From NCBI GenBank assembly GCA_022865305.1, contig JALHSP010000074.1, forward strand, positions 18,413 through 82,412: DNA of 64,000 nt, given 5' to 3'. The notes beneath the pieces were generated by a model, which worked only from the letters and a program-made list of their open reading frames with translations, made no database searches and was not told the origin of the DNA. The position numbers and the translations under genes are program-made. The stretch is from Bacteroidales bacterium (GTDB lineage: Bacteria > Bacteroidota > Bacteroidia > Bacteroidales > VadinHA17). Below, one piece after another: positions 17,440-57,540 of this stretch (positions are counted from its first letter, which is position 1; each line of letters opens with the position of its first letter).

Positions 17440-18639
17440 CTAACAGACTTTCCTGATACATTTCAATAATACTTCCAGTACTCTTTGCCGTTCTTCATCA
17501 GTCATGCCGGTGCCGGAAGGAAGACATAATCCATTTTGAAATAACCTTTCGGAGACCCCGCTAAGATAAGTCGGGTATACTGAGAAAACAGGCTGTAGAT
17601 GCATAGGCTTCCATAATGGTCTACTCTCAATATTATTCTCCTCCAACTGCTTCTGCAAATCCTCACGTGTAATTCCTGTTATTTCGGCATCGATAATAAC
17701 AGCAGTTAACCAGTGATTTGAAAAGTATGATTTATCAGGTTCTTCGAGAAATTTTAATCCTTGATATTTTTTCAGGTTTTCATAATAGAAGGAAAAATTT
17801 GATCTTCTTTGTTTTACTCTCTCATCAATAACCTCCATCTGCCCGCATCCAATTCCTGCAAGAACATTGCTCATCCGGTAATTATAACCGATCTGGCTAT
17901 GCTGATAATGCGGTGCTTTGTCCCGTGCCTGTGTCGCCAGAAATCTGGCTTTATCAATCATCTCTTTATCGTCTGAGATCAATGCTCCTCCTCCTGATGT
18001 TGTTATGATTTTATTCCCGTTGAAAGACAACACTCCCATTTTACCGAAAGTTCCAACTTGTTTCCCTTTATACTTACTGCCCAGGGCTTCCGCCGCATCT
18101 TCAATTACAGGTATATCGTATTTATTAGCTATAGCCATAATCCTGTCCATATTAGCTGGCATCCCGTATAAGTGAACAACAATGATTGCCTTGGGTAAGC
18201 GATGAGCGGTGAGAGGTGAGTGGTGAGATTTCCCTTGTGCCCTGCGCTCTGCGCCCTGCGCCCTGCGCCCTTTAATGGCTTCCTCAAGCAAGTCAGGGTC
18301 CATATTCCACGTTCCAGGTTCACTGTCAACCAGTACCGGTGTTGCTCCCAGGTAAACAATCGGATTTATAGTTGCTGAAAAAGTAAAGGAGGAAGCAATA
18401 ACTTCATCTCCAGGTTTGACTCCCAGCAGAATAAGGGCCAGGTGAATAGCCGCCGTTCCGGAGCTTAATGCCACAACATGCTTTATGCCACAATACCTGG
18501 CAATAGCTTCTTCAAAGGCATCTACATTCGCCCCAAGCGGAGCTATCCAGTTGGTGTCGAAAGCGACCTTAATATATTTTTGTTCAGCACCTCCCATATG
18601 CGGGCTTGAAAGGTAGATTCGTTTCTTATTTGTCAACAT
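17440..18639 (-). CDS. DegT/DnrJ/EryC1/StrS family PLP-dependent sugar aminotransferase carrying an in-frame ~25-aa repeat-encoded insertion
   Basis: Family pattern throughout (LSSGTAAIHLAL, IEDAAEALGS, SFNGNKIITTSGGGAL). Residues 124-148, GRRAQGAERRAQGKSHHSPLTAHRL, interrupt the usual ..EEAIK/..KAIIVVHLYG junction. Confidence 0.9.
   Translation of the reverse strand: MLTNKKRIYLSSPHMGGAEQKYIKVAFDTNWIAPLGANVDAFEEAIARYCGIKHVVALSSGTAAIHLALILLGVKPGDEVIASSFTFSATINPIVYLGATPVLVDSEPGTWNMDPDLLEEAIKGRRAQGAERRAQGKSHHSPLTAHRLPKAIIVVHLYGMPANMDRIMAIANKYDIPVIEDAAEALGSKYKGKQVGTFGKMGVLSFNGNKIITTSGGGALISDDKEMIDKARFLATQARDKAPHYQHSQIGYNYRMSNVLAGIGCGQMEVIDERVKQRRSNFSFYYENLKKYQGLKFLEEPDKSYFSNHWLTAVIIDAEITGITREDLQKQLEENNIESRPLWKPMHLQPVFSVYPTYLSGVSERLFQNGLCLPSGTGMTDEERQRVLEVLLKCIRKVC
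18194..18272. repeat. two abutting heptamer arrays inside the DegT coding sequence: (GGTGAGN)x5 then (GCGCCCT)x5
   Basis: Read directly: ggtaagc gatgagc ggtgaga ggtgagt ggtgaga tttccct t gtgccct gcgctct gcgccct gcgccct gcgccct. Confidence 0.85.
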
Positions 18640-18680
18640 TTGTGATAATTTGTTATTTCGGTGAATGCTAGTGCAAAGAG

Positions 18681-18743
18681 GTGAGCGGTGAGAGGTGAGC
18701 GGTGAGCGATGAGCGGTGAGTTATGAGCAATGAGTTTTGAGTC
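18681..18743. repeat. heptamer array (GTGAGCG-type, 9 units), left arm of zipper cassette A
   Basis: gtgagcg gtgagag gtgagcg gtgagcg atgagcg gtgagtt atgagca atgagtt ttgagtc. The core ggtgagcgatgagcg (18701-18715) is the exact reverse complement of 19160-19174. Confidence 0.85.
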
Positions 18744-18758
18744 TATAACAAATAGTAT

Positions 18759-19133
18759 TTAAGAACACCACTTATCAGGATGGTTGATCATGGATATCAG
18801 CATCTTGCGAACTTCATCATATTCATTCATTATTTCATCATGGATTTCATTTGAGATATACTTACAATCTCGTGAATAATCCAACCAGACTTCAGTTTCA
18901 TATTCTTCTCCTAATGAATCAGATAATTTATTTACAAAAGATTTGATATAACGCTTCTTTGCCCATGCTTCTGCAATATTTGATGTTACTGACCTCGACG
19001 AGCGACGAATCTGATCGATCAGAGAATACTTTTCTTCTTTTGGAAAATCTTTTGATATCTCAAATATCTTCATCGCCAGCTTATAAGCTTTCTGATATAC
19101 AATTAAATCCTTGAAACTATTTATCTGACTCAT
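18759..19133 (-). CDS. four-helix-bundle protein (23S rRNA intervening-sequence protein family, PF05635/TIGR02436-like)
   Basis: 124 aa. Family pattern FKDLIVYQKAYKLAMKIFEISKDFPKEEKYSLIDQIRRSSRSVTSNIAEAW. Confidence 0.85.
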   Translation of the reverse strand: MSQINSFKDLIVYQKAYKLAMKIFEISKDFPKEEKYSLIDQIRRSSRSVTSNIAEAWAKKRYIKSFVNKLSDSLGEEYETEVWLDYSRDCKYISNEIHDEIMNEYDEVRKMLISMINHPDKWCS

Positions 19134-19146
19134 AAATTGTAATCTA

Positions 19147-19195
19147 TCTCATTTCTCATCGCTCATCGCTCACCTCTCATCTCTATATTCTCACC
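19147..19195. repeat. heptamer array (TCTCATC/GCTCACC-type, 7 units), right arm of zipper cassette A
   Basis: tctcatt tctcatc gctcatc gctcacc tctcatc tctatat tctcacc. This is the complement flavour of 18681-18743. Confidence 0.85.
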
Positions 19196-19215
19196 GATGT
19201 AAAACAGGGCATACA

Positions 19216-20031
19216 TTACTCAAGAATAATCCTCCTTGAATCAAACGCCCAGGCCGCAAAATAACCCAGTGCACCATTAGTAATGTTTGATATGGGATTA
19301 TATGGAGTTGGAGGCATCACCCTTCTTTTCCAGAAAAGGATATCATTCAATTGTAAAAAATAGTTATAGACAGATTTATCAATGGAGAAAACCTGCACAT
19401 CAATTTCACCACCTTCATAAAATATACTTTCTGAAAAACTAATAATATTATTAGTATTGTTAATGATACCATCGTTGGTCTTTTCTTCAGTTAGAAGATA
19501 ATAACTGTCTTCTGCCATTGCACCATCCGAAATGAAGCGAACCAAATAGAAATTATCTGCATCGGGATTATCACTGAATTCGCACGTAATTGTGAATACT
19601 GTCTCTGCATTTGGATTTAATATGCTTTGTGATTGAGATTTAGTATAGCTAACTGAAATTAAATTTGTTTTCTGAGGCATGTATGAAATACCTTCATAAA
19701 TAATACCGTCATGTACTATCTCAATCTCGTAATTTTTTCCTTCAGTCCCAATAACGGAATCACCAATATAAAATCCATTACCAGTATAGCTCAGTTCCTG
19801 ATGTGAGGTTCCATCATTTATTATTATGCTGGCGTCTTCAATACATTGAGGTTCCTCCAGAGAAAAATAACTCGTAGTCTGAGTTAAACGGACAAGGCAG
19901 GTTGAGTCTTTATACATTTTACCTTCAACAACAAATGCAGGGTTAGCCGAATTCAGGTCGATATTAACTACCTCCTCACATGAAGCAATAATAATTAATA
20001 TAGAGATTGCGACTAAAGAATATTTGCTCAT
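19216..20031 (-). CDS. DUF4249-like lipoprotein, the usual partner of CarboxypepD_reg-type TonB receptors
   Basis: The internal ATG gives MSKYSLVAISILIIIASC|EE. Sits immediately downstream of the TonB-dependent receptor, as is typical for this pair. Confidence 0.65.
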   Translation of the reverse strand: MSKYSLVAISILIIIASCEEVVNIDLNSANPAFVVEGKMYKDSTCLVRLTQTTSYFSLEEPQCIEDASIIINDGTSHQELSYTGNGFYIGDSVIGTEGKNYEIEIVHDGIIYEGISYMPQKTNLISVSYTKSQSQSILNPNAETVFTITCEFSDNPDADNFYLVRFISDGAMAEDSYYLLTEEKTNDGIINNTNNIISFSESIFYEGGEIDVQVFSIDKSVYNYFLQLNDILFWKRRVMPPTPYNPISNITNGALGYFAAWAFDSRRIILE

Positions 20032-20041
20032 GAAACTTATT

Positions 20042-22351
20042 TTAAAACCTGAAATTATAGGTGATTGAAGGGACAATACCAAAGAGGCTTAGCTTCACTG
20101 CCTCTGTTGCTCCAGATAAAGTTTTGCTTCCGCGGAAACTAATTATATATGCGTTATGTCTGTTGTAAACGTTATAAACTGAGAAGGTCCAGTCCGACTT
20201 ATACTTTTTGAGATTCTTCCCATGTAAGGTCAGGCTGAGGTCAAGTCGGTGATAGGGAGGCATACGGTATCCATTTCGCTCAGTATAATAGGGTACAGGA
20301 TTATTGTCCACAATATACTTTCCGCTAGGGAAGGTAACTGCATTTCCCGTGGCATATGTCCAAACGCTTGATGTCGTCAATCGCTTACTGAGCTTATAAA
20401 TTGCAATAAAAGACACGTCATGTGTCTTATCAAACTTCATCGGATACCAGGAGAAATTGTTTATTCCTTCTATCTTAGCTTCTGCTCTTGACAGTGTATA
20501 GCTTATCCACCCTGTAAAATCTCCATACTTTTTCTTTATATAAAGTTCAAACCCATAGCTTCTTCCCTTTCCTGTAAGAATCTGCGATTCTGCATGCTCA
20601 TCAAAGATTATTTCAGCTCCATCTTCATAATCAACTGTATTAATCATGTTTTTGTAATAAACTTCTATTGATGTTTCAATGCTATTATTCAGAAAATTCC
20701 TGAATAAGCCTGCAGAAACCTGATCAACTAATACTGGTTTCAGATTATTGCTGCTCGGCATCCATACATCTGTAGGAGAGCCTGTTGTAGTGTTAGACAG
20801 AAGGTGTAAGTATTGTGCCATTCGATTGTATGACAACTTGATGGAACTTTTATCACTTAATATATAATTTACTGAAAGTCGGGGTTCAAGAGCAAAAAAG
20901 GGGTAAGCAGCTTTACCCGAACTATAATACGTTGAATCAACCGGCTCATTTTCTGGATTATATTTATAGAACCAACCCGGACCTATTTGACTAAAAATAG
21001 AAAACCTGAGACCATAATTTGCATTTAATTTTGATGTGATCTTATGTTCGCCTTGAACATATAAAGCACCTTCAAAGCCTCTTTTCTCCCTTAGAGCTAC
21101 TTCGAAGTCAATGCTATCATTAGTAGTTATTTCTCCTGGTCTGAACATGTGATAAGTAATATTCATGCCACTTTTTAAAGTGAAGTCCGGATTAATATAC
21201 CACGTTGCATCTTCTTTAAAGCTCAGGTCTTCAATGCCCGATTTAAGTCTCATGCCAAAAAGGCCGGAAATAAATCCATAATCATACTTGCTGTAAATCA
21301 TTGAGGTTTTGGAAAAAAGTTTCTTACTTAAGAGATGATTCCATCTTATTGTTCCTGTAGTATTTCCCCATATGGTTCCAACATCATTACCTAGTTCAAA
21401 TACATCTTTGCCAAAATAACCTGAAATAAACAACCTGTTTTTTTCATTAATAGTATAATTGAGTTTAGCATTAAAATCGTAGAAATAGAACTTCATATCA
21501 TGCCTGACCAGATCCTCGGGGAACAGAAGCCTGGCAACCAGATCACCATAGGTTCTTCTTCCTGACACAATAAAAGACATTTTATCTTTTATAATCGGGC
21601 CTTCAAAGGTCAAACGAGCAGAAATCAACCCTATTCCACCTGAGCTGCTGAATGTCTTGTTATTCCCATTATTCATTGTAATATCAAGCACAGACGATGC
21701 CCGGCCACCATAGCAGGCAGGTATGCCTCCCTTGTAAACAGTTACATCCTTTATAGCATCAGAATTAAATACTGAAAAGAAACCCATTAAATGAGAGGAA
21801 CTATACACTGATGCTTCATCAAGAAGAATCAGGTTCTGGCCCATTGATCCTCCACGCACATTAAAACCGGTGCTTCCTTCAGCCGAGCTGCTTATACCCG
21901 GAAGTAACTGGATTGTTTTCAGAATATCCTTTTCACCAAAAATAACAGGTATGGTTTCAATCTCCTTCAGATTCAATTTCTCAATACCTATTTCAGCCGA
22001 TGTGATCTTTATATCATTTCTTTCAGAGAATATAACAACTTCATCCAATGCCGTTACGGAAGGTGAAATTTCAATATTTAATATCTGGTTTTTATTAAAC
22101 TCCAATTCAAATTCCTTTTTTTCGTAACCTATATAACTACATCGTATTGTATATGTGCCTTCAGGGAGTGAAAGCGAATAAAAACCATATGAATTAGTTG
22201 CAACGCCTTTGGCAAGTTCAACCACCAGTACTGATACACCAATCAGGTCTTCTCCTGTTTCAACGTCAGTAATTTTCCCACTCACAGTATAGGTTTGCTG
22301 ACCAAAAGTCAATACAGGAAATAACGCAAAAAAAATGAATACTCTTTTCAT
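20042..22351 (-). CDS. TonB-dependent outer-membrane receptor with N-terminal carboxypeptidase-regulatory-like domain
   Basis: Signal peptide, then YTVSGKITDVETGEDLIGVSVLV..TNSYGFYSLSLPEGTYTIRCSYIGYE (CarbopepD_reg). Plug region follows (LPGISSSAEGSTGFNVRGG). The beta-barrel ends in an aromatic residue (..YNFRF). Confidence 0.9.
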   Translation of the reverse strand: MKRVFIFFALFPVLTFGQQTYTVSGKITDVETGEDLIGVSVLVVELAKGVATNSYGFYSLSLPEGTYTIRCSYIGYEKKEFELEFNKNQILNIEISPSVTALDEVVIFSERNDIKITSAEIGIEKLNLKEIETIPVIFGEKDILKTIQLLPGISSSAEGSTGFNVRGGSMGQNLILLDEASVYSSSHLMGFFSVFNSDAIKDVTVYKGGIPACYGGRASSVLDITMNNGNNKTFSSSGGIGLISARLTFEGPIIKDKMSFIVSGRRTYGDLVARLLFPEDLVRHDMKFYFYDFNAKLNYTINEKNRLFISGYFGKDVFELGNDVGTIWGNTTGTIRWNHLLSKKLFSKTSMIYSKYDYGFISGLFGMRLKSGIEDLSFKEDATWYINPDFTLKSGMNITYHMFRPGEITTNDSIDFEVALREKRGFEGALYVQGEHKITSKLNANYGLRFSIFSQIGPGWFYKYNPENEPVDSTYYSSGKAAYPFFALEPRLSVNYILSDKSSIKLSYNRMAQYLHLLSNTTTGSPTDVWMPSSNNLKPVLVDQVSAGLFRNFLNNSIETSIEVYYKNMINTVDYEDGAEIIFDEHAESQILTGKGRSYGFELYIKKKYGDFTGWISYTLSRAEAKIEGINNFSWYPMKFDKTHDVSFIAIYKLSKRLTTSSVWTYATGNAVTFPSGKYIVDNNPVPYYTERNGYRMPPYHRLDLSLTLHGKNLKKYKSDWTFSVYNVYNRHNAYIISFRGSKTLSGATEAVKLSLFGIVPSITYNFRF

Positions 22352-22395
22352 TCTTTTAATCTTCGTGCATTACTGTATATCAGGATTAAGACAAT

Positions 22396-22423
22396 GAACT
22401 CTGAGTCTGGAACTCTGAACTTT
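22396..22423. repeat. short heptamer array (GAACTCT-type, 4 units)
   Basis: gaactct gagtctg gaactct gaacttt in the intergenic region upstream of the TonB receptor gene. No complementary arm found. Confidence 0.4.
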
Positions 22424-22456
22424 TAAATGTTCTGCTCCACACTAGCTGAAAGGTGA

Positions 22457-22479
22457 TTCTTCAAAGGCATCTACATTCG
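22457..22479 (-). other. 23-nt exact copy of a DegT 5' coding segment (identical to 18508-18530); remnant reads ..SGPNVDAFEES..
   Basis: ttcttcaaaggcatctacattcg occurs at both positions. Flanking sequence keeps weak similarity for ~10 more nt, then diverges. Confidence 0.7.
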
Positions 22480-22588
22480 GACCAGATGGAAATTTGATTA
22501 AATTTTGCGGTATTGTCTTGCGGCTGAACAGGGAATTTTATATTTATGATTATAACCATAAAGGAACAAAATCCTGGTCACATTTTTT

Positions 22589-23173
22589 TCAGGCTCCTCG
22601 TCTGAAAATTGTCTGCAGGATAATCACAATATCGCCAAAGAAACTCCTGTTCATATAGTACTGGAGATTTAATCTTACTTTATCTGGCCATAATACATTA
22701 TCATTATATTCCTGTGGAGAAGATACATAGGATAGAAGCTCTTCTTCATTGGCATATTTTAAGGATGCCGGGCCTGTAATTCCGGGACGAAGTTCAAGAA
22801 TCTTTTTTTCTTCACCGGTAAGCTTATTTATATATTCAGGCAAGTCAGGTCGCGGACCGACAAAACTCATATCTCCCTTCAGTACATTCCAGAGTTCAGG
22901 TAGTTCATCCAGCTTATATTTGCGCAATTTTGTTCCAAGTGGTGTTATACGGCTCTCTCCCCTGACCGAGATGCTGCTTCCTCCATGGTCAACAACCATT
23001 GTTCGGAATTTATAAAGTATAAATAGCTTTCCATGCTTCCCTGCTCTTTTCTGGCAGAAGAACATAGGCCCCGGCATTCGCATCCTGATTAGTAATGCTA
23101 TTAATAAAAATAGCGGAAAAAGAATGAGCAGCCCTAAAAATGAAGCGATAATGTCAAAGAGCCTCTTAATCAT
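22589..23173 (-). CDS. undecaprenyl-phosphate sugar-phosphate transferase (small PglC/WbaP-C-terminal-type initiating enzyme)
   Basis: MIKRLFDIIASFLGLLILFPLFLLIALLI.., KFRTM, DELPELWNVLKGDMSFVGPRP. Confidence 0.9.
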   Translation of the reverse strand: MIKRLFDIIASFLGLLILFPLFLLIALLIRMRMPGPMFFCQKRAGKHGKLFILYKFRTMVVDHGGSSISVRGESRITPLGTKLRKYKLDELPELWNVLKGDMSFVGPRPDLPEYINKLTGEEKKILELRPGITGPASLKYANEEELLSYVSSPQEYNDNVLWPDKVRLNLQYYMNRSFFGDIVIILQTIFRRGA

Positions 23174-23182
23174 TATTCAGGA

Positions 23183-23245
23183 AGGTATTCAGTATTCAGT
23201 ATTCAGTATTCAGTATTCAGTCATCTAATTACCGATCACGGATTA
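23183..23245. repeat. heptamer array: GGTATTC followed by four perfect AGTATTC units, then attaccg-type units; left side of cassette B
   Basis: ggtattc agtattc agtattc agtattc agtattc agtcatc taattac cgatcac ggattac. Confidence 0.85.
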
Positions 23246-23624
23246 CTGTTCTTAATGCAAAAGGTTGAGGATTTATCAATCATTTTTTGAGGCATTCTTC
23301 CGATGGATTCACATTTATGCAATAACCGCTCAGTCTCTTCTGAATCAATATATTGACACTCTTCTGATACCTCAATCCAATGCTGGGTTTCCATCTGTTC
23401 AGCATCTGCATCTGTCAGCTTTGAAATAAAATGCATCTCGTATCTTCTTTTCCCCAAGCCTCGGCGATTTGCGCACCAATCGATCTTGAAGATCTTCTTA
23501 TCTGGTCAGTTAAGGAATATTTTTCTTCTTTTGGAAAGTTTTTACTCACAAAATATATTGCCTTAGCAACTTCCCGTGAAAGTTTATATACCTCAAGATC
23601 CCGAAAACTTGTCACATACACCAT
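23236..23624 (-). pseudogene. four-helix-bundle (23S rRNA IVS protein family) gene split by a 1-nt frameshift in a G4A4 run
   Basis: ORF 23415-23624 (..KEEKYSLTDQIRRSSRSIGAQIAEAWGKE) continues in another frame as ORF 23236-23457 (GKRRYEMHFISKLTDADAEQMETQHWIE..). The switch lies at ttttcccc, 23447-23454. Confidence 0.8.
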
Positions 23625-23644
23625 TATTACTTTATTTTACAAAT

Positions 23645-23686
23645 AGTACTGATTACCGATTACTGAATACCGATCACTGATTACCC
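23645..23686. repeat. heptamer array (ATTACYG-type, 6 units), right side of cassette B; overlaps the stop codon of the GNAT gene
   Basis: agtactg attaccg attactg aataccg atcactg attaccc. The reverse-complement units cagtaat/cggtatt match the left-arm CAGTATT register at 5-6 of 7 positions. Confidence 0.8.
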
Positions 23687-24279
23687 TCATGATTTTTTAT
23701 AAATTCCACCAGCAAATAATCATTCTGCAATTCCTTAAGTATAACCATCGTTGTGTTTTTTAAATGTGCCCACATTACAGCAGTATTATGTCTTGAGATG
23801 GTTGAAAGACACCTGAAATTCATCCTCCAGGCTGTCTCATACATAATATTATTCATTACCCTCCCTATTTCACGCCCTCTGTAATTTACATCAATCAGCC
23901 TCCCCACAAAGCACTTCTTATTCAAAAAGAAGCGCAGAAAAAAATATCCAACCAGTTTATTTTCACTAAATGTTCCCATCATCAGAAAGGCATTTTTTCT
24001 CAGCTGTTGTTGAAGAGAATTCAAGTCGAATTCATGTGGATGGAAAAAATCAAGATCCGGGACAGGCTGAGATTTTATTAGGTCATAAAGCTGGATCATG
24101 TCATCGGAATTAAGTCTTCTATAAGAAAACGGAGAGACAGAAAACTCATTGAACACATCCGGTAATATTTTTTCCATCTTGTATTTAAATAAAATCATGA
24201 ACAGGAATCCATTACCCCACTCTATTAACTTCCACAGAATACTAAAATGATGCTTAATGAAGATCAGAATTTTTTCCAT
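23674..24279 (-). CDS. GNAT-like acetyltransferase
   Basis: ..LVGYFFLRFF..VGRLIDVNYRGREIGRVMNNIMYETAW.. (R-G-x-x-I-G acetyl-CoA loop). Confidence 0.6.
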   Translation of the reverse strand: MEKILIFIKHHFSILWKLIEWGNGFLFMILFKYKMEKILPDVFNEFSVSPFSYRRLNSDDMIQLYDLIKSQPVPDLDFFHPHEFDLNSLQQQLRKNAFLMMGTFSENKLVGYFFLRFFLNKKCFVGRLIDVNYRGREIGRVMNNIMYETAWRMNFRCLSTISRHNTAVMWAHLKNTTMVILKELQNDYLLVEFIKNHEGNQ

Positions 24280-25286: not shown

Positions 25287-25353
25287 TTATGTCTGGTTTC
25301 AGGTTTAATTAATATCTAAGCTGAATATCGACTCCCTTTTTTTTATCTCATTA

Positions 25354-26472
25354 TCAGTCATTTGGATATATTTCACCCAGCATTTCTGCAGAACTGACGA
25401 ACTCGGTATCGGGCCAGTTTCTTACGATAGTATCAAGTAAAAGTTTCAATTCTCTCAATCCTTTTTCTCTGTTACTTTGTTCGATCCCCCCGACAAAGTT
25501 TACTCTGTGCGTGCTGATATTTGCAGGTTTGTTCCAGCGAAAAGCTGCTTCTATTTGTTTAAGAGTTAGATCAATTCCGCGATATCCCGGATCGGTTGGT
25601 TCAAAGGCGCAGTTTCTTGTATAATATATCAATCCATGTGATGTCTTTTTACCGTTTCTGAAGTACTTATATTTTATCCTGCCGTTTTTCCCAGGTATAG
25701 GATTGAAGGTACTTGCATAAATGTATTTTACACCTGTTTCAGCAAGAGTCTTCTCAAAAACAGGATGGAAAATACTATTGCCTGGTACAAAAATCCGTGG
25801 AGTGTAGCCAAAAATATCCTTAAAAAGATGAACCCCTTCAGAAATAGCAGCTTTAAGAAACTCTATCTGCTCAGGGTTGTTAAAATAGAATTCGGAACGG
25901 AATTGATTAAGAACCGGATTTATTCCGTCAATACTTACAGCAATAAATTCATGCTCAAACGCTTCCCTGACAACCTGATTACCCTCACGCAACTTTTGCA
26001 GCCAGAATTGAACCGAAACATGTTCCCGGCCATGTATTTCAGGAATAAAGATCCCAAGTTCCATCCCTTTTTCCCAGGTGTTGAATGTATCAGGATCACG
26101 GTTATATCTCTTTAATGTCTCAATAAATGGCTCATAGAAATATTCAGTGAAATCGCATTCTTTTATTCTTTTAAAGTCAGGATTGGCGACATTTGTTACC
26201 GCAGTCATAACTGCTCCATGACCATTTTTATCCTTAACACTTAACAATATCTCAAATAGATATTCAAGGTCTTGTTTATCAGCCAGAGTATCAAACCTGT
26301 TAAACCTGTTTTCAGTTATGGGAATGTTTGCCTTGAGGATTTTATTATAAACCTCCTTTGATGGCATCCGGATACTTCCCCAATCATCACACTCAATTAC
26401 AAGAAGTTTTCTTTTGCTTCTCTTGCCCTGCAGGTTTTTTAAATTTAGTACAAGGATGTTCTTTAAATCCAT
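25354..26472 (-). CDS. conserved hypothetical enzyme-like protein ('DDWGS' family), paralog of 35155-36258
   Basis: The track start is GTG; ATG is at 26472. Motifs LLVIECDDWGSIRMPSKEVY, IPEIHGREH and STHRVNFVGG are shared with the paralog. Possibly a deacetylase/hydrolase-fold protein (inference only). Confidence 0.65.
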   Translation of the reverse strand: MDLKNILVLNLKNLQGKRSKRKLLVIECDDWGSIRMPSKEVYNKILKANIPITENRFNRFDTLADKQDLEYLFEILLSVKDKNGHGAVMTAVTNVANPDFKRIKECDFTEYFYEPFIETLKRYNRDPDTFNTWEKGMELGIFIPEIHGREHVSVQFWLQKLREGNQVVREAFEHEFIAVSIDGINPVLNQFRSEFYFNNPEQIEFLKAAISEGVHLFKDIFGYTPRIFVPGNSIFHPVFEKTLAETGVKYIYASTFNPIPGKNGRIKYKYFRNGKKTSHGLIYYTRNCAFEPTDPGYRGIDLTLKQIEAAFRWNKPANISTHRVNFVGGIEQSNREKGLRELKLLLDTIVRNWPDTEFVSSAEMLGEIYPND

Positions 26473-26545
26473 AGTCACCTAGATAATTGAAATTCTTTTT
26501 ACTGTTTTTGAAAGAAGTGAATATTACAGCATACCTAAAAATGGA

Positions 26546-29562: not shown

Positions 29563-29576
29563 GGCAGAATTTCTTA

Positions 29577-38660: not shown

Positions 38661-38697
38661 AGTTCTCTGGATGGCATTTATTACTGATAAATTATAT

Positions 38698-38781
38698 GAC
38701 CGAAGACCGAAGATCGATGTATTAGGTTCAACTCCTGTCTTCCGTCTTCCGTCTTCCGTCTTCCGCCTTCAACCTTCCTCA
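38698..38781. repeat. empty zipper hairpin: (GACCGAA)x3, 14-nt loop, (TTCCGTC)x5-7
   Basis: gaccgaa gaccgaa gatcgat | gtattaggttcaac | tcctgtc ttccgtc ttccgtc ttccgtc ttccgcc ttcaacc ttcctca. Six of 7 positions pair per unit. The right arm runs into the stop codon and last 7 codons of 38769-40940. Confidence 0.8.
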
Positions 38782-40940
38782 ACCTGCTTCAACCCGTGAA
38801 TCTGATCGAGAACAGAAAGTGTAAGTCTCGTCATTTCAATATCAGTTTCAAATGGAAGTATAAGGGACTCTTCATTCTTAAGTTTCTTTGATAGTTCATT
38901 AATTAATACTTTATGACCTTTGTCAGCCTGTTTTAGCTTCATCCCCGTCTCATCACAATTAAAGGTTTGAAGCTCAATGAAATCATTGATTACCAGGGAA
39001 CTGCCGTTTGTAAATATTTCAATCCTCTCTTTCTCCATATCTTTTCCACCTATGGAAGTATAGGTCAGAACGCCTATTGATCCATTCTCAAACGCCATTG
39101 TTACTATTACATTATCCTCTGATTGTATGATTTTTCCATCAGTTGGTATATGGGCCGCATATATCTCCCTTACCTTGCCTGATGCCAGGTAAGCAATCAA
39201 ATCTATAAAATGACACACTTCACCTACTATTCTTCCGCCGCCTTCCTCCAGATCCTGTACCCAGATATCAGGAGGGAAATAACCTGCATTTACACGATAG
39301 TTTATAACAACAGGCGTTCCGCTATTCTTAATTACGTGTTTTACCTTCTGGATTAACGGTGAATACCTCCGGTTGAAGCCAACTGTTGCAACCACATGCG
39401 GATTTTCCCGTATTGCTCCTTCAATCATTGACAATTCATCATGGTTCATCGCCAGTGGTTTTTCAACAAGCACATTCTTCCCTGATCTGATTGAATCAGT
39501 AACCAAAACAGCATGAAGATTATGCCGTGTGCCAATAACAATCAGGTCAATGTCAGGATCACTTATTAACTGCCTATAGTCTGTTGAAACATAATTTACT
39601 TTATATTTCTCACTGACTGTTTTTGCAGAGGCAGGGGTTCTCTCGGCAATACCTATTAATTCATATTCTTCCGGCATATTCAATATATTCGACAGATGAT
39701 TTCTTTGAATAAAGCTGCCGACCCCTATAATACCAACTCCTATTTTCCCAGAAGTAATTTTCCGAGGATGTACTTCCATACGGCTTACCGGAACAACCTT
39801 CTCCTCGTGCAAATAATTAAATAAGCACGAAATATTTCCTCCAGGATTTTCAACCAGCGTATTATATGCTTCGGCTGCCTGATCAATATTAAATCTATTT
39901 GATATAAGAGGATCTACCTTCACCTGACCCGTAGCAAGAAGCCTTATAAATTCCATCATATTACGGTTTTCGGTCCAACGGACATAACCGATTGGGTAAT
40001 CTATTCCTTTTAGTTCATATTGATTATCATACCTTCCTGGTCCGTAAGATGTTGACATTACAAAATCAAGTTCCTTCGAATACATTGCCTCGCGCTCAAG
40101 ATTCATTCCAACTGATCCAACAATAACAACCCGTCCTTTTTTCCGGCAGGCTTCCATGGCCTGATTCGCCGGTTCAGAATGTTTTGTTGCAGCATAAATT
40201 ATAACTGCATCAGCACCATAGCCATGAGTTGCATCCTTTATTTTTTGAACAAGGTTCTTGTCATTTGCATCAAAACAATGATCGGCCCCCACTTCTTTCG
40301 CAAGTTCAAGACGCAATGGATTGAGATCTGTGCCAATTACGACCAGACCCCATGTTTTTGCTATCTGAACAGCTATTAGTCCCAGGAGGCCTAATCCGAT
40401 AATTACAATTGTCTCACCAAAAGTTACATTGGCACGCCTTATACCCTGCATCGCTATGGAACCTATAGTCGTAAAACCTGCAGATTCAAAAGAGACTTCA
40501 TCAGGTATTTTAACAGCCAGGTTGACCGGTACAGAAGTAAACTCAGCATGTGCTGCAATACCGGCACCGGCGCACGCAACACGGTCTCCCACATTAAAAT
40601 TTGTCACCAGGTGCCCTTTTGCTATAACAACTCCGGCATTGCTATAACCAACAGGTTTAAATATAACAGCCTGTTCAGCCGGATTTAATTTATTTTTTAT
40701 CGCTTTTATTGCTGAATTGAAACCTTTTTCCTGTATTATCCGGTTTACTTTATCCCACAATAATTTCTTTTCATGCAGTTTTTCGGACAGTGTCACATCC
40801 CCCTTCTTCATGCCCATTGTCTCAGTCCCTGTACTGATAACACTGGTATAGACTGCAACCAGCAACTCATTATCTCCGGGAGTTGGCACAGGTGCATCCA
40901 GCGCATTGAGTCCTTTATTTGTAGCAAAAATTTGTTTCAT
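38769..40940 (-). CDS. bi-domain oxidoreductase: N-terminal MDR/zinc-type alcohol dehydrogenase fused to a Gfo/Idh/MocA NAD(P)-binding oxidoreductase
   Basis: The N-terminal half has GDRVACAG.. and the Rossmann motif IIGLGLLGLIAVQIAK. The C-terminal half has GVGIIGVGSFIQRNHL, LVEKPLA and EVCHFIDL. Confidence 0.85.
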   Translation of the reverse strand: MKQIFATNKGLNALDAPVPTPGDNELLVAVYTSVISTGTETMGMKKGDVTLSEKLHEKKLLWDKVNRIIQEKGFNSAIKAIKNKLNPAEQAVIFKPVGYSNAGVVIAKGHLVTNFNVGDRVACAGAGIAAHAEFTSVPVNLAVKIPDEVSFESAGFTTIGSIAMQGIRRANVTFGETIVIIGLGLLGLIAVQIAKTWGLVVIGTDLNPLRLELAKEVGADHCFDANDKNLVQKIKDATHGYGADAVIIYAATKHSEPANQAMEACRKKGRVVIVGSVGMNLEREAMYSKELDFVMSTSYGPGRYDNQYELKGIDYPIGYVRWTENRNMMEFIRLLATGQVKVDPLISNRFNIDQAAEAYNTLVENPGGNISCLFNYLHEEKVVPVSRMEVHPRKITSGKIGVGIIGVGSFIQRNHLSNILNMPEEYELIGIAERTPASAKTVSEKYKVNYVSTDYRQLISDPDIDLIVIGTRHNLHAVLVTDSIRSGKNVLVEKPLAMNHDELSMIEGAIRENPHVVATVGFNRRYSPLIQKVKHVIKNSGTPVVINYRVNAGYFPPDIWVQDLEEGGGRIVGEVCHFIDLIAYLASGKVREIYAAHIPTDGKIIQSEDNVIVTMAFENGSIGVLTYTSIGGKDMEKERIEIFTNGSSLVINDFIELQTFNCDETGMKLKQADKGHKVLINELSKKLKNEESLILPFETDIEMTRLTLSVLDQIHGLKQVEEG

Positions 40941-48526: not shown

Positions 48527-48560
48527 CTTAATGGTACTATTGCTGAGTTCCGGGCTCCGG

Positions 48561-48610: not shown

Positions 48611-48616
48611 TTCCTT

Positions 48617-50998: not shown

Positions 50999-51114
50999 TG
51001 TTGTATTATATTGCTTCTGTTTCTGTAAAAACTCGTTACATCAAAGTATATGCCTGAATCAGTACAAGCATATATAGATGGGGATATAGCCTCTTGCTGA
51101 TGATTTCATCATAG

Positions 51115-51909: not shown

Positions 51910-52000
51910 CTTAAATGCGATTAAAAATTATAAAACATAAAGAGTGTCTGAGAATTAAGTTATAAAGTTAACTGTTTTATTTCTTATCTGATCCTTTCAA

Positions 52001-52085
52001 CTTCGCGAGGTAAAAGATTCTAAAGTTTATGCTCAATGTGTATTTAGAATCTTTGGCTAAGGATTACCTTTAGTCCTCACCGAAG
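52001..52085. other. structured intergenic element between capD-like stop and wza start
   Basis: Inner perfect 9-bp stem gattctaaa (52016-52024) / tttagaatc (52043-52051). Outer imperfect stem cttcgcgagg (52001-52010) / cctcaccgaag (52074-52084). A small side hairpin is ctaagg-atta-cctttag. Confidence 0.35.
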
Positions 52086-52101
52086 CTTAAGCGAAGTCTA
52101 A

Positions 52102-54045: not shown

Positions 54046-54087
54046 CTCTAAGATATTGGAAGAGAGGTTAGATTTTCAATTTGTAAT

Positions 54088-54165
54088 AAGACAAAAGTTA
54101 AAAGATAAAAGTATTAATCTTTGAGTCCTTCACTTTTGTCTTGTGAATTTTATCTTTTGTCTTTT
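54088..54165. repeat. empty zipper hairpin (GACAAAA / CTTTTGT flavour) just upstream of the capD-like start codon
   Basis: aagacaaaagttaaaagataaaag | 21-nt loop | cttttgtcttgtgaattttatcttttgtctttt. Perfect sub-stems are aagacaaaag/cttttgtctt and aaaagataaaa/ttttatctttt. Confidence 0.7.
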
Positions 54166-54534
54166 CCGACTCCGGAGGAGCATGCTTCCGCCCCGTCAGT
54201 CCCAACTACTTATTGCTGTAACTAATTATTATTGTGATGCAAAGTGTCTTTAGTCAGGCTTTTGCCAACAATTATATTCGTTACAGTAAACCTGCTCCGG
54301 TCAGACAAATGAACAAACATTCAGGCGGTGAATTTAATGAAAGAAATGTGGGTTATCAAACAGTAAAATGAATAGAGTGTTGAAAAAAATGGTATATCCG
54401 GGATATTTGACTAGCAATAATTGTTAATTCAAATTCTAAATTGTTTTACTGGTAATAATTTTGTCTCCTTTCATAAAAATCCAAAAATTTTTGATGAAAG
54501 TATTGTAAAACCTGATAAAAAGCTCCTGAATCAA

Positions 54535-56688
54535 TTATTTATTAAATATTGTGAAATCAATCCGTCTGTTAAGTCTTCTGTCAGTCGGATAGGTATTCGA
54601 GGCAATCGGTCTGTTTCCGCCATATCCTTTTGCTGTCAGGCGTTTGCTACTGATGCCTCTGTTGATCATATAGTTTACTATCACCTGGGCTCGGGATTGG
54701 GACAGTGACAGGTTATTTGACGAAACTCCCTGGTTATCAGTGTGCACGCCTATCTCAAGTCCTATACCTGGGTATTTATTCATCAGCATCACAACCTGAT
54801 CAAGCATGATATATGCGCGGGTGGTCAAACTGTTGTTGGCATCAAAATATGTGTCAGTCAGAAGGCTATTATTCTTTTCGAGAATATACAATTCCTTTTC
54901 TGCAGGATCTTTGAGTATAAAGATTCGAACCCTGGCATCACTATGCCCGCTTGCTACCATCTCATTATATGCCGGGTAGGTGGCCATCAGGTTCATTTGC
55001 TCGTCAACAATATAGCTCCAGGTACCGGCTTCGGCATCAAATAGTTCCTTCACAGTGTACTTCGCAGGTACATTTCTGAAAAAGGTGCTGTAAAGATTAG
55101 TCTTGGCTCGAGATGATAATAATACCACCTGGAATACTGCCTCCCTGCTGAAATCTGTCTCAGCAGAATAGAGCCCATTAACTTTAACATTCTCAAAATG
55201 CCTGATGTCAGTAAGATTCTGCCTCACAACTGGCCTTCCGGCTATATATGAAGCCCTATCCTGCTCACTTCGGAACACAATCACTTTTTTTGTTACCGCC
55301 CTTTTGACAACATCTACTGTAGTCTGCGACTTTAATGTTAGTCCCAGTCTGACATTATATTCTCCGCTTTCACCAAACGTATGGTTGACTCTCTCTCCAT
55401 ATTCTGTGGTACCATCACCAAAGTTCCAGAAATAGCCTGTAACATTATATCCGGGACAGTATGACTTTAATCCATCAAATTCAACTGCCTCACCGATAAT
55501 AGCATAATCAGGAGAACTAATAAACGGTTGATCATTATCAACGATCTCAATATCATACGTGAGTTTTCGGAAGAAGAGGTTTCCAGTTCTCCTGTCGGTG
55601 ATATCAAGGTTTATGCTGTATCTTCCGGGGCCCGGGAAACAGTGCCTTACATTTGTGCCGTACACCTTTGAATCATCCCCGAAATCCCATTTATACCTTA
55701 GTCTCAGCGTGTCAATCTGTATTGATCCTGTGTCTGAGATAGTAAAACAATACTGGTTTTCTTTCTGAGGCTCGCTTAACCAGACCTGGAGTAGATCTGA
55801 GTTGAACCGGAATATATCTATAGTTTTCCCCCTGTTCGAAGAGAAGTATCCTTCATTCTTATTTGCATGAGTAATAATGCCGAAATCATCGAACTCCGAG
55901 TTTACAGGCGCATCTAGCCTTACTGGCGGATACCATCCAGTGCCTTGCTGCTTCGTTACAAAAATATCCTTCCCTCCTAGTCCCTCGTGACCATCGGATG
56001 AGAAGAAAAACTCACCAGCGTTGTTTATAAAGGGATAAGATTCATTCCCCTTGGTGTTAACGAGTGGACCAAGGTTCACAGGGTCTTCCCAATAACCGTT
56101 TCTCCATTGACTGTAGTAAATATCTGCACCTCCGTAACCATCGGGCCTGTCAGATGCGAAGTACAATCTTTTACCATCGGGAGAGAGACATGGCATGGTA
56201 ATATTATACCACTCATTATTGAACCCCATCTCATGGATCTTTGTCCATTTTTCACCCTCCAGAACTGCCCTGAAAATGCCAAGCTTATTTCTTAATGTAG
56301 AAAGCTGACGGTAATTACCATCAACCTGCAGATTTCTGGAATAGTATATTGTATCACCTCTGCTGCTAAAGGTTACTGGCCCGTCGTTAAAGTGTGTCTT
56401 TAAACTCTTTGAAAACAATCCTGATTTTCGCCATGCAACCTTACCTGTCGTATCAATATAGTTGATCTTAACCTGGCCTCTGTCCTGGGAAGAAGAGTAA
56501 TTTGTCAACGAACCTGACTGACGGTTTGTGCTGAAAACTATTCCGTTCTTATAATAAACAGGACAGAATTCGTCATATTTCTTCGAGCTGAAAGGGGCTT
56601 TTGTCACCGTATATGTCTCTTGCTGCCCTGTAGATAACTGGTTAAGGGTGAAGCTTATCAATATAATTAGTAGCAACTTGAAATTCAT
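54535..56688 (-). CDS. OmpA-family protein with TolB-like beta-propeller repeats and PKD domains
   Basis: ATG at 56688 gives the signal MNFKLLLIILISFTLNQL. The track's extra 23 aa are a translation of the heptamer array. WD40-like PD40 repeats are present (LSPDGKRLYFASDRPDGYGGADIY). Two PKD-like modules are present (WDFGDDS.., WNFGDGT..). The C-terminal OmpA domain reads TDNQG..NLSLSQSRAQ..RRIDF. Confidence 0.85.
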   Translation of the reverse strand: MNFKLLLIILISFTLNQLSTGQQETYTVTKAPFSSKKYDEFCPVYYKNGIVFSTNRQSGSLTNYSSSQDRGQVKINYIDTTGKVAWRKSGLFSKSLKTHFNDGPVTFSSRGDTIYYSRNLQVDGNYRQLSTLRNKLGIFRAVLEGEKWTKIHEMGFNNEWYNITMPCLSPDGKRLYFASDRPDGYGGADIYYSQWRNGYWEDPVNLGPLVNTKGNESYPFINNAGEFFFSSDGHEGLGGKDIFVTKQQGTGWYPPVRLDAPVNSEFDDFGIITHANKNEGYFSSNRGKTIDIFRFNSDLLQVWLSEPQKENQYCFTISDTGSIQIDTLRLRYKWDFGDDSKVYGTNVRHCFPGPGRYSINLDITDRRTGNLFFRKLTYDIEIVDNDQPFISSPDYAIIGEAVEFDGLKSYCPGYNVTGYFWNFGDGTTEYGERVNHTFGESGEYNVRLGLTLKSQTTVDVVKRAVTKKVIVFRSEQDRASYIAGRPVVRQNLTDIRHFENVKVNGLYSAETDFSREAVFQVVLLSSRAKTNLYSTFFRNVPAKYTVKELFDAEAGTWSYIVDEQMNLMATYPAYNEMVASGHSDARVRIFILKDPAEKELYILEKNNSLLTDTYFDANNSLTTRAYIMLDQVVMLMNKYPGIGLEIGVHTDNQGVSSNNLSLSQSRAQVIVNYMINRGISSKRLTAKGYGGNRPIASNTYPTDRRLNRRIDFTIFNK

Positions 56689-56728
56689 GGTTTTCGTTTT
56701 ACTAGATAGAAGTGCCTGGTTATTTAAA

Positions 56729-56878
56729 GTTGGCAGTTGGCAGTTGGCAGTTGGCAATCTTTGTTTCTTGTGTATATTATTTCAGGGGAAAATTTCAGGA
56801 ATTTCTATTATAATCCTGATCTATTACTTAAAATCTAAAATTTAACTTTTTGCCAACTGCATTTTGCCAACTGCAATT
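56729..56878. repeat. empty zipper hairpin: (GTTGGCA)x4, ~94-nt loop, TGCCAAC-type arm
   Basis: Four perfect gttggca units at 56729-56756, and tgccaac tgcattt tgccaac tgcaatt at 56851-56878. Two 10-bp perfect matches gcagttggca/tgccaactgc. Confidence 0.75.
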
Positions 56879-56953
56879 TTTTGCTAAGGTAAGTAATTAA
56901 GTCGCGTTAAGAATCGAAAGTAATGTGCACTGCTTTAATGCTTAATAATCCGC

Positions 56954-57069
56954 CTAGTGCCGCGGAACATATTTCTCAGGATTTTCCACCATATGATTCA
57001 ACATCCTGCCTACTTCTTCCAAATTGTCAATAAGTTCCAGATATTCTTCGTGAGTGATATAGTTACACT
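56954..57069 (-). pseudogene. 3' remnant (~38 codons) of a four-helix-bundle gene, truncated exactly at the left arm of cassette C
   Basis: Own translation gives KCNYITHEEYLELIDNLEEVGRMLNHMVENPEKYVPRH*. This aligns with the C-terminus of the 18759-19133 product (DCKYISNEIHDEIMNEYDEVRKMLISMINHPDKW). Confidence 0.6.
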
Positions 57070-57123
57070 TAGAATGCCTAGAGTGCCTAAAGTGCCTAGA
57101 GTGCCTAAAGTTGATTAAGTTTG
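57070..57123. repeat. 9-mer array (TAGAGTGCC/TAAAGTGCC type), left arm of cassette C
   Basis: tagaatgcc tagagtgcc taaagtgcc tagagtgcc taaagttga ttaagtttg. agtgcctaaagtt (57100-57112) is the exact reverse complement of 57528-57540. Confidence 0.8.
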
Positions 57124-57126
57124 AAG

Positions 57127-57513
57127 TTATTGTAGTTTTGAAGTTTTACCAATCGAGGTAAAAATTGCCAGTAATTCTATTGCTTCGTTCATTACAGGTT
57201 CCGTTTTTTGTGAGTTGATCCAGTTAAGATCAATTATAATTTCCAGCCAATAGATAGTCTCACTGGCTTCGCTTTCACAAATTCTTATTTTATTTATAAA
57301 ATCAGCTTTACTTCTTGCCCGGTTGGCTTCTCTGTAATTTGCACCAACACTTGTTCCTGCCTTTGTGAATTGATTCCTAATTATTTTCCCTTCAGGTGAT
57401 CCTGGTAAAAGAACAGATAGTTTTATAACACTGATAGCAAATTTCTTCGTTCTTCCCTCCAGTTGCCTGGCAAACTCTTTATTATCCATAACTTCAATTT
57501 TAATAACTCCCAA
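57127..57513 (-). CDS. four-helix-bundle protein (23S rRNA intervening-sequence protein family)
   Basis: 128 aa. ..FAISVIKLSVLLPGSPEGKIIRNQFTKAGTSVGANYREANRARSKADFINKIRICESEASETIYWLE.. is the typical family pattern. Confidence 0.85.
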   Translation of the reverse strand: MGVIKIEVMDNKEFARQLEGRTKKFAISVIKLSVLLPGSPEGKIIRNQFTKAGTSVGANYREANRARSKADFINKIRICESEASETIYWLEIIIDLNWINSQKTEPVMNEAIELLAIFTSIGKTSKLQ

Positions 57514-57540
57514 CTTTAGGCATTCCTAACTTTAGGCACT
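57512..57540. repeat. right arm of cassette C (AACTTTAGGCA repeat), abutting the PorP/SprF stop codon
   Basis: aactttaggcattcct aactttaggcact. Confidence 0.75.

Follow-up and report, generated by a model that had tools for sequence, protein, structure and literature searches.

Short tandem arrays that face their own reverse complements, in three cases across a gene or pseudogene for a small four-helix-bundle (4HB) protein, lie at gene junctions in a 64,000-nt stretch of a Bacteroidales genome (GenBank contig JALHSP010000074.1, positions 18,413 to 82,412; referred to here as the window). The window has a G+C content of 37%, and its minus strand carries nearly all genes at 15.9-58.5 kb. These genes include a polysaccharide locus with Wza/Wzc-like export genes, a PglF-like dehydratase, glycosyltransferases, a flippase, a 2-epimerase, a sugar transferase, a PglE-like aminotransferase, and an MBOAT gene. 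A TonB-receptor/DUF4249 pair interrupts this locus, and a group encoding OmpA/PKD, PorP/SprF, and giant repeat protein/adhesin products (type IX secretion) adjoins it. An initial annotation had described the arrays as punctuating a polysaccharide operon. That label is only approximately right, because the array sites are spread over both the interrupted polysaccharide locus and the adjacent PorP/OmpA/giant-adhesin group.

Paired arrays with complementarity occur at six sites, and each was recovered at the position given by the initial annotation by both Tandem Repeats Finder (TRF) and an inverted-repeat search. On the sense (minus) strand, all six have a G/purine-rich array 5' and the reverse-complement array 3'. 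Three sites are cassettes, in which the arms flank a 4HB gene or pseudogene, and three are hairpins without an open reading frame (ORF). The features are as follows.

19145..19195, minus strand: 5' arm of cassette 1, purine-rich heptamers GATGAGA/GGTGAGC (sense), found by TRF and as inverted repeats; starts 20 nt past the DUF4249 stop codon.
18759..19133, minus strand: cargo of cassette 1, an intact gene for a 124-aa 4HB protein.
18680..18742, minus strand: 3' arm of cassette 1, (CTCACCG)n, complementary to the 5' arm; ends 40 nt ahead of the aminotransferase start codon. The TRF arrays of cassette 1 are 18680-18742 and 19147-19184 (GGTGAGC / TCTCATC).
23647..23703, minus strand: 5' arm of cassette 2, ATCGGTA/ATCAGTA units; overlaps the stop codon of the upstream gene 23674..24279.
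23236..23624, minus strand: cargo of cassette 2, a 4HB pseudogene split by a frameshift into 69-aa and 73-aa pieces.
23166..23221, minus strand: 3' arm of cassette 2, (ACTGAAT)n in the sense direction; abuts the sugar-transferase start codon at 23173. The TRF arrays of cassette 2 are 23185-23221 and 23647-23685.
57508..57538, minus strand: 5' arm of cassette 3, 9-mer units of the TAAAGTGCC type; begins 1 nt past the PorP/SprF stop codon.
57127..57513, minus strand: cargo of cassette 3, an intact 4HB gene; the listed ORF has 128 aa, and the likely ATG start is at 57489.
57070..57111, minus strand: 3' arm of cassette 3, 9-mer (GGCACTNTA)n in the sense direction.
56954..57067, minus strand: truncated 4HB gene directly downstream of cassette 3, with the last ~37 codons left.
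38698..38778, minus strand: ORF-less hairpin A; 5' arm (GGAAGAC)n at 38737-38778, overlapping the stop codon of gene 38769..40940; loop of about 20 nt; 3' arm of 2.9 units at 38698-38717. TRF arrays 38698-38717 and 38737-38770.
54088..54165, minus strand: ORF-less hairpin B, built of an A-rich unit (GACAAAA) and lying 43 nt upstream of where the PglF-like gene starts. TRF arrays 54088-54111 and 54133-54165.
56726..56881, minus strand: ORF-less hairpin C, with arms (GCAGTTG)n and (TGCCAAC)n around a loop of 92 nt, placed immediately upstream of the OmpA/PKD gene. TRF arrays 56728-56756 and 56848-56879.
22396..22423, minus strand: lone heptamer array, AGAGTTC (sense), found by TRF, with no partner arm.
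18194..18271, minus strand: in-frame insert of about 25 aa in the aminotransferase, (GGGCGCA)n followed by (CTCACCN)n.

The arrays are neither chance periodicities nor, where a second assembly exists, artefacts of assembly. At a strict lag-match threshold, 58.5 kb of the window contains 6 arrays compared with 0 in 30 dinucleotide shuffles. An independent Logan assembly of the same sample and genome (L182) is 100% identical over 9750-21961, so the arrays within that interval were not created by assembly. All array sites lie between or within protein-coding genes, and an Rfam scan of the whole window returned zero families, large-subunit rRNA included. A terminator scan found no terminator-like site overlapping any array and no T-run after the 3' arms; the short GC-rich stem followed by a T-tract of an intrinsic terminator is absent from the arrays. 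Mechanical ORF calls pass through the arrays, which are free of stop codons, as seen at the TTG start ('MPTANCQLPT...') of the OmpA gene (54535..56757) and at the TTG start of cassette 3. Among the 4HB proteins in databases, many of those with 140-190 aa are probably N-terminal over-extensions of this kind.

The repeat unit varies by site (GGTGAGC, GTATTCA, GGAAGAC, GACAAAA, GCAGTTG, TAAAGTGCC, and GGGCGCA), and a BLAST comparison of the window with itself detects mutual similarity only for the two GGTGAGC-type arrays. This is not the pattern of repetitive extragenic palindromic (REP) sequences or bacterial interspersed mosaic elements (BIMEs), which share one palindromic consensus genome-wide. 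The observation agrees with the initial annotation that structure, rather than sequence, is conserved, the units being site-specific and the arms complementary. GGG occurs in GGGCGCA only, and the window units lack the four or more G-tracts needed for a G-quadruplex (G4). G4 or i-motif formation, as proposed for the GGGAATC repeats of Xanthomonas and the GGGGAYT repeats of Nostoc, is therefore a highly improbable basis for the arrays. Some relatives have G-tract units (GGGAGAAT in locus L063 and GGGGAGTG in L080), and Rehm et al. demonstrated G4 formation in vitro for such units, but most units have no G-tracts (GGTGAGC, GTATTCA, GACAAAA, GCAGTTG, TAAAGTGCC), and the conserved property is arm complementarity, not G-runs.

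Folding predictions place each cassette insert on a closed stem. In the sense direction, z-scores are -4.47 for cassette 1 (18672-19200), -4.17 for cassette 2 (23176-23700), and -4.39 for cassette 3 (57062-57545), and in each case 0/100 shuffles were as stable. The arms form the closing stem in both minimum-free-energy and centroid structures, giving the complementary termini and extended stem enclosing an insert that typify the intervening sequences (IVSs) of 23S rRNA. Two of the three ORF-less hairpins also fold significantly, namely C (56720-56888; z = -6.2, 0/200 shuffles as stable) and B (54080-54172; z = -3.5, 2/200). The comparison with shuffles that was proposed in the initial annotation thus bears out the three cassettes and these two hairpins, but hairpin A (38690-38800) is weak, with z = -1.8 and 11/200 shuffles as stable. 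The lone array (22385-22435; z = -0.8, 48/200) is not a hairpin. Neither are the arrays at 18194-18271, from which the initial annotation had counted the series; they are mutually non-complementary, lie in frame within the aminotransferase ORF, and give z = -0.1 with 80/200 shuffles as stable (18188-18278). A profile search found no 4HB remnants in the loops of the ORF-less hairpins down to E = 50.

The cargo genes of the window belong to the PF05635/TIGR02436 family of 4HB proteins first found in 23S rRNA IVSs, an assignment that the initial annotation had made and that profile matches above the curated cutoffs, covering the full domain of ~105 residues, confirm. The product of 18759..19133 matches TIGR02436 with E = 1e-32 and 112.7 bits (cutoff 24) and PF05635 with E = 1e-35 and 122 bits (cutoff 33.8). 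That of 57127..57513 scores 89.8 bits against TIGR02436 and 68.4 bits (E = 7e-19) against PF05635. The two pieces of the pseudogene at 23236..23624 match TIGR02436 with E = 3e-15 and 8e-12 (56.5 and 45.4 bits), and the fragment at 56954-57067 has its own 4HB profile match over positions 86-120 (E = 8e-9). The window therefore contains two intact ORFs of about 125 aa in hairpin loops, rather than the three originally counted, the third being frameshifted. The three proteins are 26-44% identical to each other, in line with the earlier view that the copies are mutually divergent. The 124-aa protein is 100% identical to a protein (P0001) from a Bacteroidales metagenome-assembled genome and homologous to PDB entries 2rld (a Bacteroides thetaiotaomicron protein; E = 2e-13) and 2gsc (XCC0516; E = 1.4e-6), both of which have 5 chains. 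Family members share a conserved GxxRxxxSxxxNxxE motif (PMC3936711). In the 124-aa protein this region reads QIRRSSRSVTSNIAE, with RxxxSxxxNxxE present and Q in place of G; in the 128-aa protein it reads KAGTSVGANYRE, with K in place of R.

The family is large: a word-index search gave 5,562 hits, and 12,230 clusters defined at 50% identity match with E <= 1e-3. Close copies have a dN/dS of about 0.2 with saturated dS, and this purifying selection on the protein shows that the 4HB cargo has a function of its own. No match to PADLOC or to other functional families was found for the cargo. Membership in a diversity-generating retroelement, which combines Avd, a reverse transcriptase, and template and variable repeats, was considered and rejected. 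The proteins do resemble Avd (PF22296 bAvd-like, E = 6e-9), but the match to NF033474 scores 33 bits, below the equivalog cutoff of 80, and there is no reverse transcriptase among the scanned ORFs at 15.9-58.5 kb, a scan in which template and variable repeats were not looked for.

The layout is not peculiar to this genome. The window proteins, aligned with several homologs, were the query for fetching 80 loci from species-representative genomes of the Bacteroidota, Acidobacteriota, Chloroflexota, Cyanobacteria, Thermodesulfobacteriota, Cloacimonadota, Nitrospinota, Verrucomicrobiota, and other phyla, and all other ORFs in the same loci served as controls. By eye, most 4HB genes in these loci have the same layout, for example (GGTGAGA)n...(TCTCACC)n, (GGCAGAA)n...(TTCTGCC)n, or (GGGAGAAT)n...(ATTCTCCC)n. 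Ungapped flank complementarity of at least 14 was found at 51/92 4HB genes (55%) and at 3/234 control ORFs (1.3%; Fisher p = 2e-30), and the top-scoring control is itself a divergent PF05635 gene. When the arms alone are folded, the median count of inter-arm base pairs is 49 at 4HB genes and 19 at controls (p = 7e-21), and at least 30 such pairs form in 79% and 24%, respectively. Several loci contain two to four cassettes on the same strand. Cultivable carriers include Tangfeifania diversioriginum DSM 27063 (L040), where three cassettes lie within 4 kb, Carboxylicivirga caseinilyticus A049 (L018), Flavobacterium pectinovorum (L079), and Ulvibacterium marinum (L039). The scan of PF05635 flanks suggested in the initial annotation thus confirms that the IVS-like layout recurs in many bacterial phyla, far beyond one window.

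Several rules describe the element. The array period is 7 nt in 50 of 67 cases, 8 in 10, 6 in 6, and 9 in 1. The sense 5' arm averages 70% purine and has more G than C in 58/67. Counted from the stop codon of the upstream gene, the 5' array begins at a median distance of 12 nt. About 40 nt separate its end from the 4HB start codon, and the 3' array starts about 22 nt past the 4HB stop codon. Most 4HB genes are co-directional with their surroundings, 61/81 being parallel to both neighbours and 74/81 to the upstream neighbour. As in the repeats described from Xanthomonas and Nostoc, the 7-mers lie between co-oriented ORFs, G-rich after a stop codon and C-rich before a start codon. Tandem heptamers 5' of an S23p ORF, as in the Coxiella type of IVS, also have counterparts in the window, where purine-rich 7-mers (9-mers in cassette 3) precede all three ORFs, and the relatives show the same arrangement.

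Unit sequence is inherited with the gene. The rotational distance between units is 0.29 for proteins less than 25% divergent and 0.47-0.48 beyond 40% divergence (Mantel p = 0.002). Because unit similarity tracks protein similarity, the arms belong to the element, travel with the gene, and turn over quickly. The units of the window do differ at each site, as first described, yet they resemble those of each protein's closest relatives; the arms of cassette 2 (ATCGGTA/ATCAGTA), for example, resemble those of L069 and L078. Array length can also change. A cassette encoding protein P0097 was found in ten samples (L161-L170) with the protein and 5' arm identical throughout, but the 3' array of L169 is 7 units (49 nt) shorter than that of L161, and four contigs end inside the 3' array. 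The P0097 arrays are length-polymorphic, break short-read assemblies, or both.

Two other loci show unusual arm arrangements. In L001 (1100-1210 and 4370-4480), the 5' arm (GAGATATGAGATTTGAG) of one cassette complements a segment within the 3' arm of another that lies 3 kb downstream, and the first cassette's own 3' arm has a different unit. This pattern suggests arm exchange or nesting between neighbouring cassettes. In L075 (7261-7721), a 128-aa PNPOx-like gene sits between arrays that have the unit of a nearby 4HB cassette with reversed polarity, C-rich upstream and G-rich downstream. Either this gene lies between two ORF-less hairpins, or the arms can hold other cargo.

Some of these properties could be expected of modules that benefit the host. 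The arrays might serve as contingency (phase-variation) repeats or in translational control, with a pentameric 4HB protein reading one unit per subunit, as TRAP does, in competition with the hairpin. The change by whole units in L169 is compatible with such a role, as are the array positions (start codons, stop codons, and an in-frame site within a surface-sugar aminotransferase), the purifying selection on the protein, and the five chains in crystals of 4HB homologs. Moreover, the unit theme co-varies with protein subfamily, since 13/16 close relatives retain a GAG core, and in the Haemophilus influenzae hmw1A gene heptamer number, a hairpin, and RNase III are tied to expression. The module model is nevertheless unlikely. 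The window arrays cluster near 5 copies, yet across 127 arms the copy-number distribution declines steadily between 3 and 25 and has no peak at 5, so the idea that a pentamer reads five repeats is not supported. Some 4HB proteins that are 80-90% identical adjoin different units, the neighbouring genes share no common function, and no PADLOC or functional family match points to a regulatory role. Finally, pseudogenised cargo sits in intact hairpins and ORF-less hairpins exist, indicating that the hairpin does not need the protein.

The insert at 18194-18271 illustrates how readily arrays arise. It lies in an otherwise well-conserved PglE-like enzyme, where about 25 residues replace a surface loop of 8-9 residues, and it appears as a gap in alignments to PDB 1o61 and 4ztc. 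An ortholog in L020 (65% identical) has (GAAAAAG)x10 in the same loop (L020 4819-4895), with a 4HB cassette immediately upstream, and other arrays occupy this loop in L083, L089, L090, L093, and L125; 74/81 orthologs have no loop array. The L089 protein differs from those of L090 and L093 by about 10%, and their loop-array units are unrelated. Some of the loop arrays resemble local amplification of a native AAAGGAA... sequence. Judged from these sequences, arrays in these lineages evidently arise and turn over quickly, and they persist where they are tolerated. Since 7 nt is not a multiple of 3, a slip by one unit would frameshift the aminotransferase, and the loop array could be a phase-variation switch.

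Such turnover raises the question of whether the paired arrays are a neutral by-product, in which a high rate of 7-nt slippage, together with template switching at quasi-palindromes, turns pre-existing inverted repeats into matched arrays that have no function. Arrays are dense in the fetched loci (254 in 624 kb), and unrelated units have arisen repeatedly in the same permissive loop, even in proteins that are 90% identical. Unequal arm lengths and the lack of a sense-strand wobble bias (see below) would also be accommodated. Still, this explanation is quite improbable. Relative to the remaining ORFs of these loci, complementary flanks are enriched about 40-fold at 4HB genes. The layout has survived complete turnover of unit sequence across phyla and in rRNA IVSs, and the consistent polarity with respect to transcription needs a directional constraint.

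The surroundings of the cassettes are those of a passenger. Genes next to cassettes in other genomes represent 158 unrelated Pfam families, with ABC transporters the commonest and sugar epimerases, response regulators, radical-SAM enzymes, and RuvC also present, which rules out a functional tie to polysaccharide genes. Among orthologs of the window aminotransferase, only 3/81 have an adjoining 4HB cassette, so that presence and absence vary across orthologous loci, a comparison called for in the initial annotation. The window itself has two decayed 4HB copies, one frameshifted and one truncated. Such contexts and decay, with the 61/81 co-oriented genes, fit the original suggestion of an old selfish element that occupies co-directional junctions. 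Published reports that link 23S_rRNA_IVP genes to cas operons, one of them with a 4HB gene lying between cmr3 and cmr2, agree with this view. If a repeat-built hairpin is the normal housing of the family, such links, to cas and to other operons, likely reflect insertion of a passenger and not a functional partnership. When metagenomes were scanned with the aminotransferase for closely related empty sites, nothing above 68% identity was found, and the one exact relative of the window, L182, is the same genome. Among 2.9 million viral contigs there was 1 distant match, indicating that the cassette is not phage-borne.

A second suggestion in the initial annotation, that the hairpins serve as recombination seams for cassette exchange, has one weak hint in its favour. 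A 23-nt exact copy of the aminotransferase 5' region (18508-18530) lies beside the lone array at 22457-22479 (minus strand), between the sugar-transferase and TonB-receptor genes. The copy suggests a rearrangement scar, left when a block of TonB-receptor, DUF4249, and cassette 1 was inserted or rearranged there.

A passenger could also move as DNA. In this alternative the arrays would be terminal inverted repeats, or cruciform or hairpin DNA, used by a trans-acting recombinase or by replication, and the ORF-less hairpins would resemble MITEs (miniature inverted-repeat transposable elements). Inverted arms are present, units are inherited with the gene like the termini of an element family, contexts are promiscuous and variable among orthologous loci, and insertions can be nested or adjacent, as with the truncated 4HB gene next to cassette 3. 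Wobble-compatible mismatches, in addition, show no strand asymmetry. However, no transposase or recombinase was found among the ORFs scanned in the window or linked to cassettes in the loci, and the 4HB protein is not an enzyme fold. Target-site duplications were not found on inspection, the outer ends of cassette 1 and of the P0007 element being without direct duplication. Copies within a genome have unlike arms, and their sequences could therefore not be recognised by any one trans-acting protein. Together with the polarity with respect to transcription (58/67), the operon embedding, and the near absence from viral contigs, these observations make a DNA-level mobile element an unlikely explanation.

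A different small element does occur within a 4HB-family gene in L006 (6580-6872), a point that can be read in favour of mobility. There, an 84-aa GIY-YIG nuclease gene is bounded by a perfect 13-bp inverted repeat (TGCCCTGTGAAAT / ATTTCACAGGGCA), and its removal restores one continuous 4HB frame. A comparable small GIY-YIG gene is found at L019 7551-7850.

On balance, the probable explanation is that the cassettes are IVS-type inserts that operons tolerate as RNase III-prone hairpins. Each cassette consists of a G/purine-rich array of 6-9-nt units (usually 7), a gene for a 4HB protein of ~125 aa, and the reverse-complement array; it is placed in a gap of ~100 nt between co-directional genes and would be read through by the host transcript. 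In the RNA, the arms may pair to form an imperfect double-stranded stem of 25-55 bp, which would loop the insert out and provide a natural substrate for RNase III. Looping out or cleavage is proposed to keep the cost and polar damage to flanking genes low, and the insert would for this reason persist as a passenger, whether selfish or nearly neutral. ORF-less hairpins would correspond to the rRNA IVSs that lack an ORF.

The repeats themselves may come from a strong tendency of these genomes for 7-nt slippage, which would also seed arrays in the permissive aminotransferase loop. Selection for the stem, strand switching templated by the hairpin, or the two together might then maintain complementarity. 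Slippage and maintained complementarity would together explain why the unit drifts fast, stays matched between arms, and travels with the gene. The polarity could relate to Rho. During transcription of the 400-nt loop, a C-rich 5' arm would remain unpaired and accessible for Rho loading, whereas C-rich sequence in the 3' arm would pair at once upon synthesis. The strict polarity (58/67) and the operon embedding argue for a constraint at the level of the transcript.

Several observations weigh against the proposal of tolerated, RNase III-prone inserts. A simple stem does not predict G-rich-5' polarity, and RNase III cleavage in an mRNA context is extrapolated from the Coxiella IVS and hmw1A. 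G.U-compatible mismatches number 70 in the sense and 71 in the antisense direction, and sense folds barely outdo antisense folds (30 versus 20 elements, p = 0.03). With wobble mismatches strand-symmetric and the advantage of sense folds slight, complementarity could be maintained at the DNA level. Arm lengths are often very unequal, as in L161 with about 12 units in the 5' arm and about 21 in the 3' arm, indicating that mutational expansion is not tightly matched between arms. Depending on the measure, a clear stem is absent at about 20-45% of 4HB genes. Lastly, the purifying selection on the 4HB protein shows a cargo function that an IVS-type cassette leaves unexplained.

A bolder form of the same proposal is offered tentatively, as rather more doubtful than probable. 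rRNA IVSs could be the visible tip of a pan-bacterial class of operonic IVSs, with thousands of 4HB genes housed in self-renewing heptamer hairpins, which would render the insert harmless as RNase III clips or loops it out. An operonic IVS would be a spliceless analogue of an intron, able to reside in any host transcript, mRNA or rRNA. By analogy with hmw1A, the expansion of repeats and the matching of arms might be driven by the hairpin's own transcription, folding, and cleavage by RNase III.

If a repeat-built hairpin is the normal housing of the family, the rRNA IVS becomes one insertion site of a general element, and the data suggest that rRNA IVSs are one special case of a much larger class of inserts. 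The same housing would provide a common frame for scattered reports of heptamer arrays in Xanthomonas, Nostoc, Beggiatoa, and Bacteroidetes. There are also practical consequences for annotation and assembly, as contigs break at arrays and gene callers extend ORFs through them.

Other repeats in the window are separate from the arrays. A 908-nt direct repeat (89% identity) links 1276-2183 with 8687-9594, outside 18194-57540, and a 60-nt segment (87% identity) is common to two genes of the polysaccharide locus (26341-26400 and 36127-36186). Upstream of the PorP/SprF gene, the giant ORF at 58578..63992 and beyond has 285-nt (95-aa) tandem repeats over 60309-64000, in about 8 + 3 copies with 78-79% identity. 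This ORF is probably a SprB-like type IX secretion adhesin.

Where bacterial rRNA IVSs and the S23p/4HB family come from, and what they do, are questions that date from the early 1990s. The literature search, which did not cover subscription-only papers, found no paper on 4HB genes generally bracketed by inverted short-unit arrays. Among known systems, the rRNA IVS shares with the window cassettes the same protein family in the loop, complementary termini that form a long stem, the existence of both ORF-containing and ORF-less forms, and an ORF that is often decaying. The likeness is closer than the initial annotation had claimed. The S23p ORF of the Coxiella burnetii 23S IVS is preceded by GACAGAT heptamers in tandem, two or three depending on the strain, and the 5' RNase III site is at the first repeat, within a 28-bp terminal stem (PMC4990558). 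RNase III cleavage of the stems has been demonstrated for the homologous 23S rRNA IVSs of Coxiella and Leptospira. The window cassettes differ in lying in a protein-coding operon and not in helix 9, 25, or 45 of 23S rRNA. The ribosome keeps cut rRNA fragments together, whereas nothing would hold the halves of a cut mRNA. The operonic arrays are also longer, reaching 25 units in relatives.

The heptamers of Xanthomonas and Nostoc resemble the window arrays in having a G-rich sense array just past a stop codon and a C-rich one just ahead of a start codon. The GGGAATC arrays of Xanthomonas campestris are transcribed, lie between co-oriented ORFs, and include 70 convergent (inverted) pairs (PMC4692102). 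Array no. 15 overlaps the start codon of XCC0516 (supplementary table, PMC4692102), which encodes the 4HB protein of PDB 2gsc, a homolog of the window protein. Other heptameric repeats include GGGGAYT and STRR-type repeats in Nostoc (PMC4692102) and TAACTGA in Beggiatoaceae, Cyanobacteria, and Bacteroidetes (PMC4679880). The papers on these repeats describe one unit per genome, read it as a G4 or translational signal, and do not mention 4HB cargo. In contrast, each site in the window has its own unit, and most of these are unable to form a G4.

In the 5'-untranslated region of H. influenzae hmw1A, a transcribed (ATCTTTC)n array forms one arm of a hairpin that is processed by RNase III, and both hairpin and RNase III influence changes in repeat number (PMC12721329). 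This system differs in being a single locus upstream of an adhesin gene, in having a non-repetitive G-rich second arm and no gene in the loop, and in its demonstrated phase-variation function for the host. REP/BIME sequences, MITEs, and Rickettsia palindromic elements are likewise hairpin repeats that punctuate operons, with possible roles in mRNA stability or insulation, and some Rickettsia elements lie in frame in proteins, as the aminotransferase array insert does. REP sequences and MITEs, however, have one consensus per genome and a cognate transposase (e.g. RAYT), whereas the arms here are site-specific tandem arrays and the 4HB cargo is non-enzymatic. Taken together, these comparisons indicate that pieces of the pattern have been published. 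The general rule of repeat-built stems around 4HB genes was not found in the literature searched, and the elements that follow it are best read as IVS-type elements outside rRNA.

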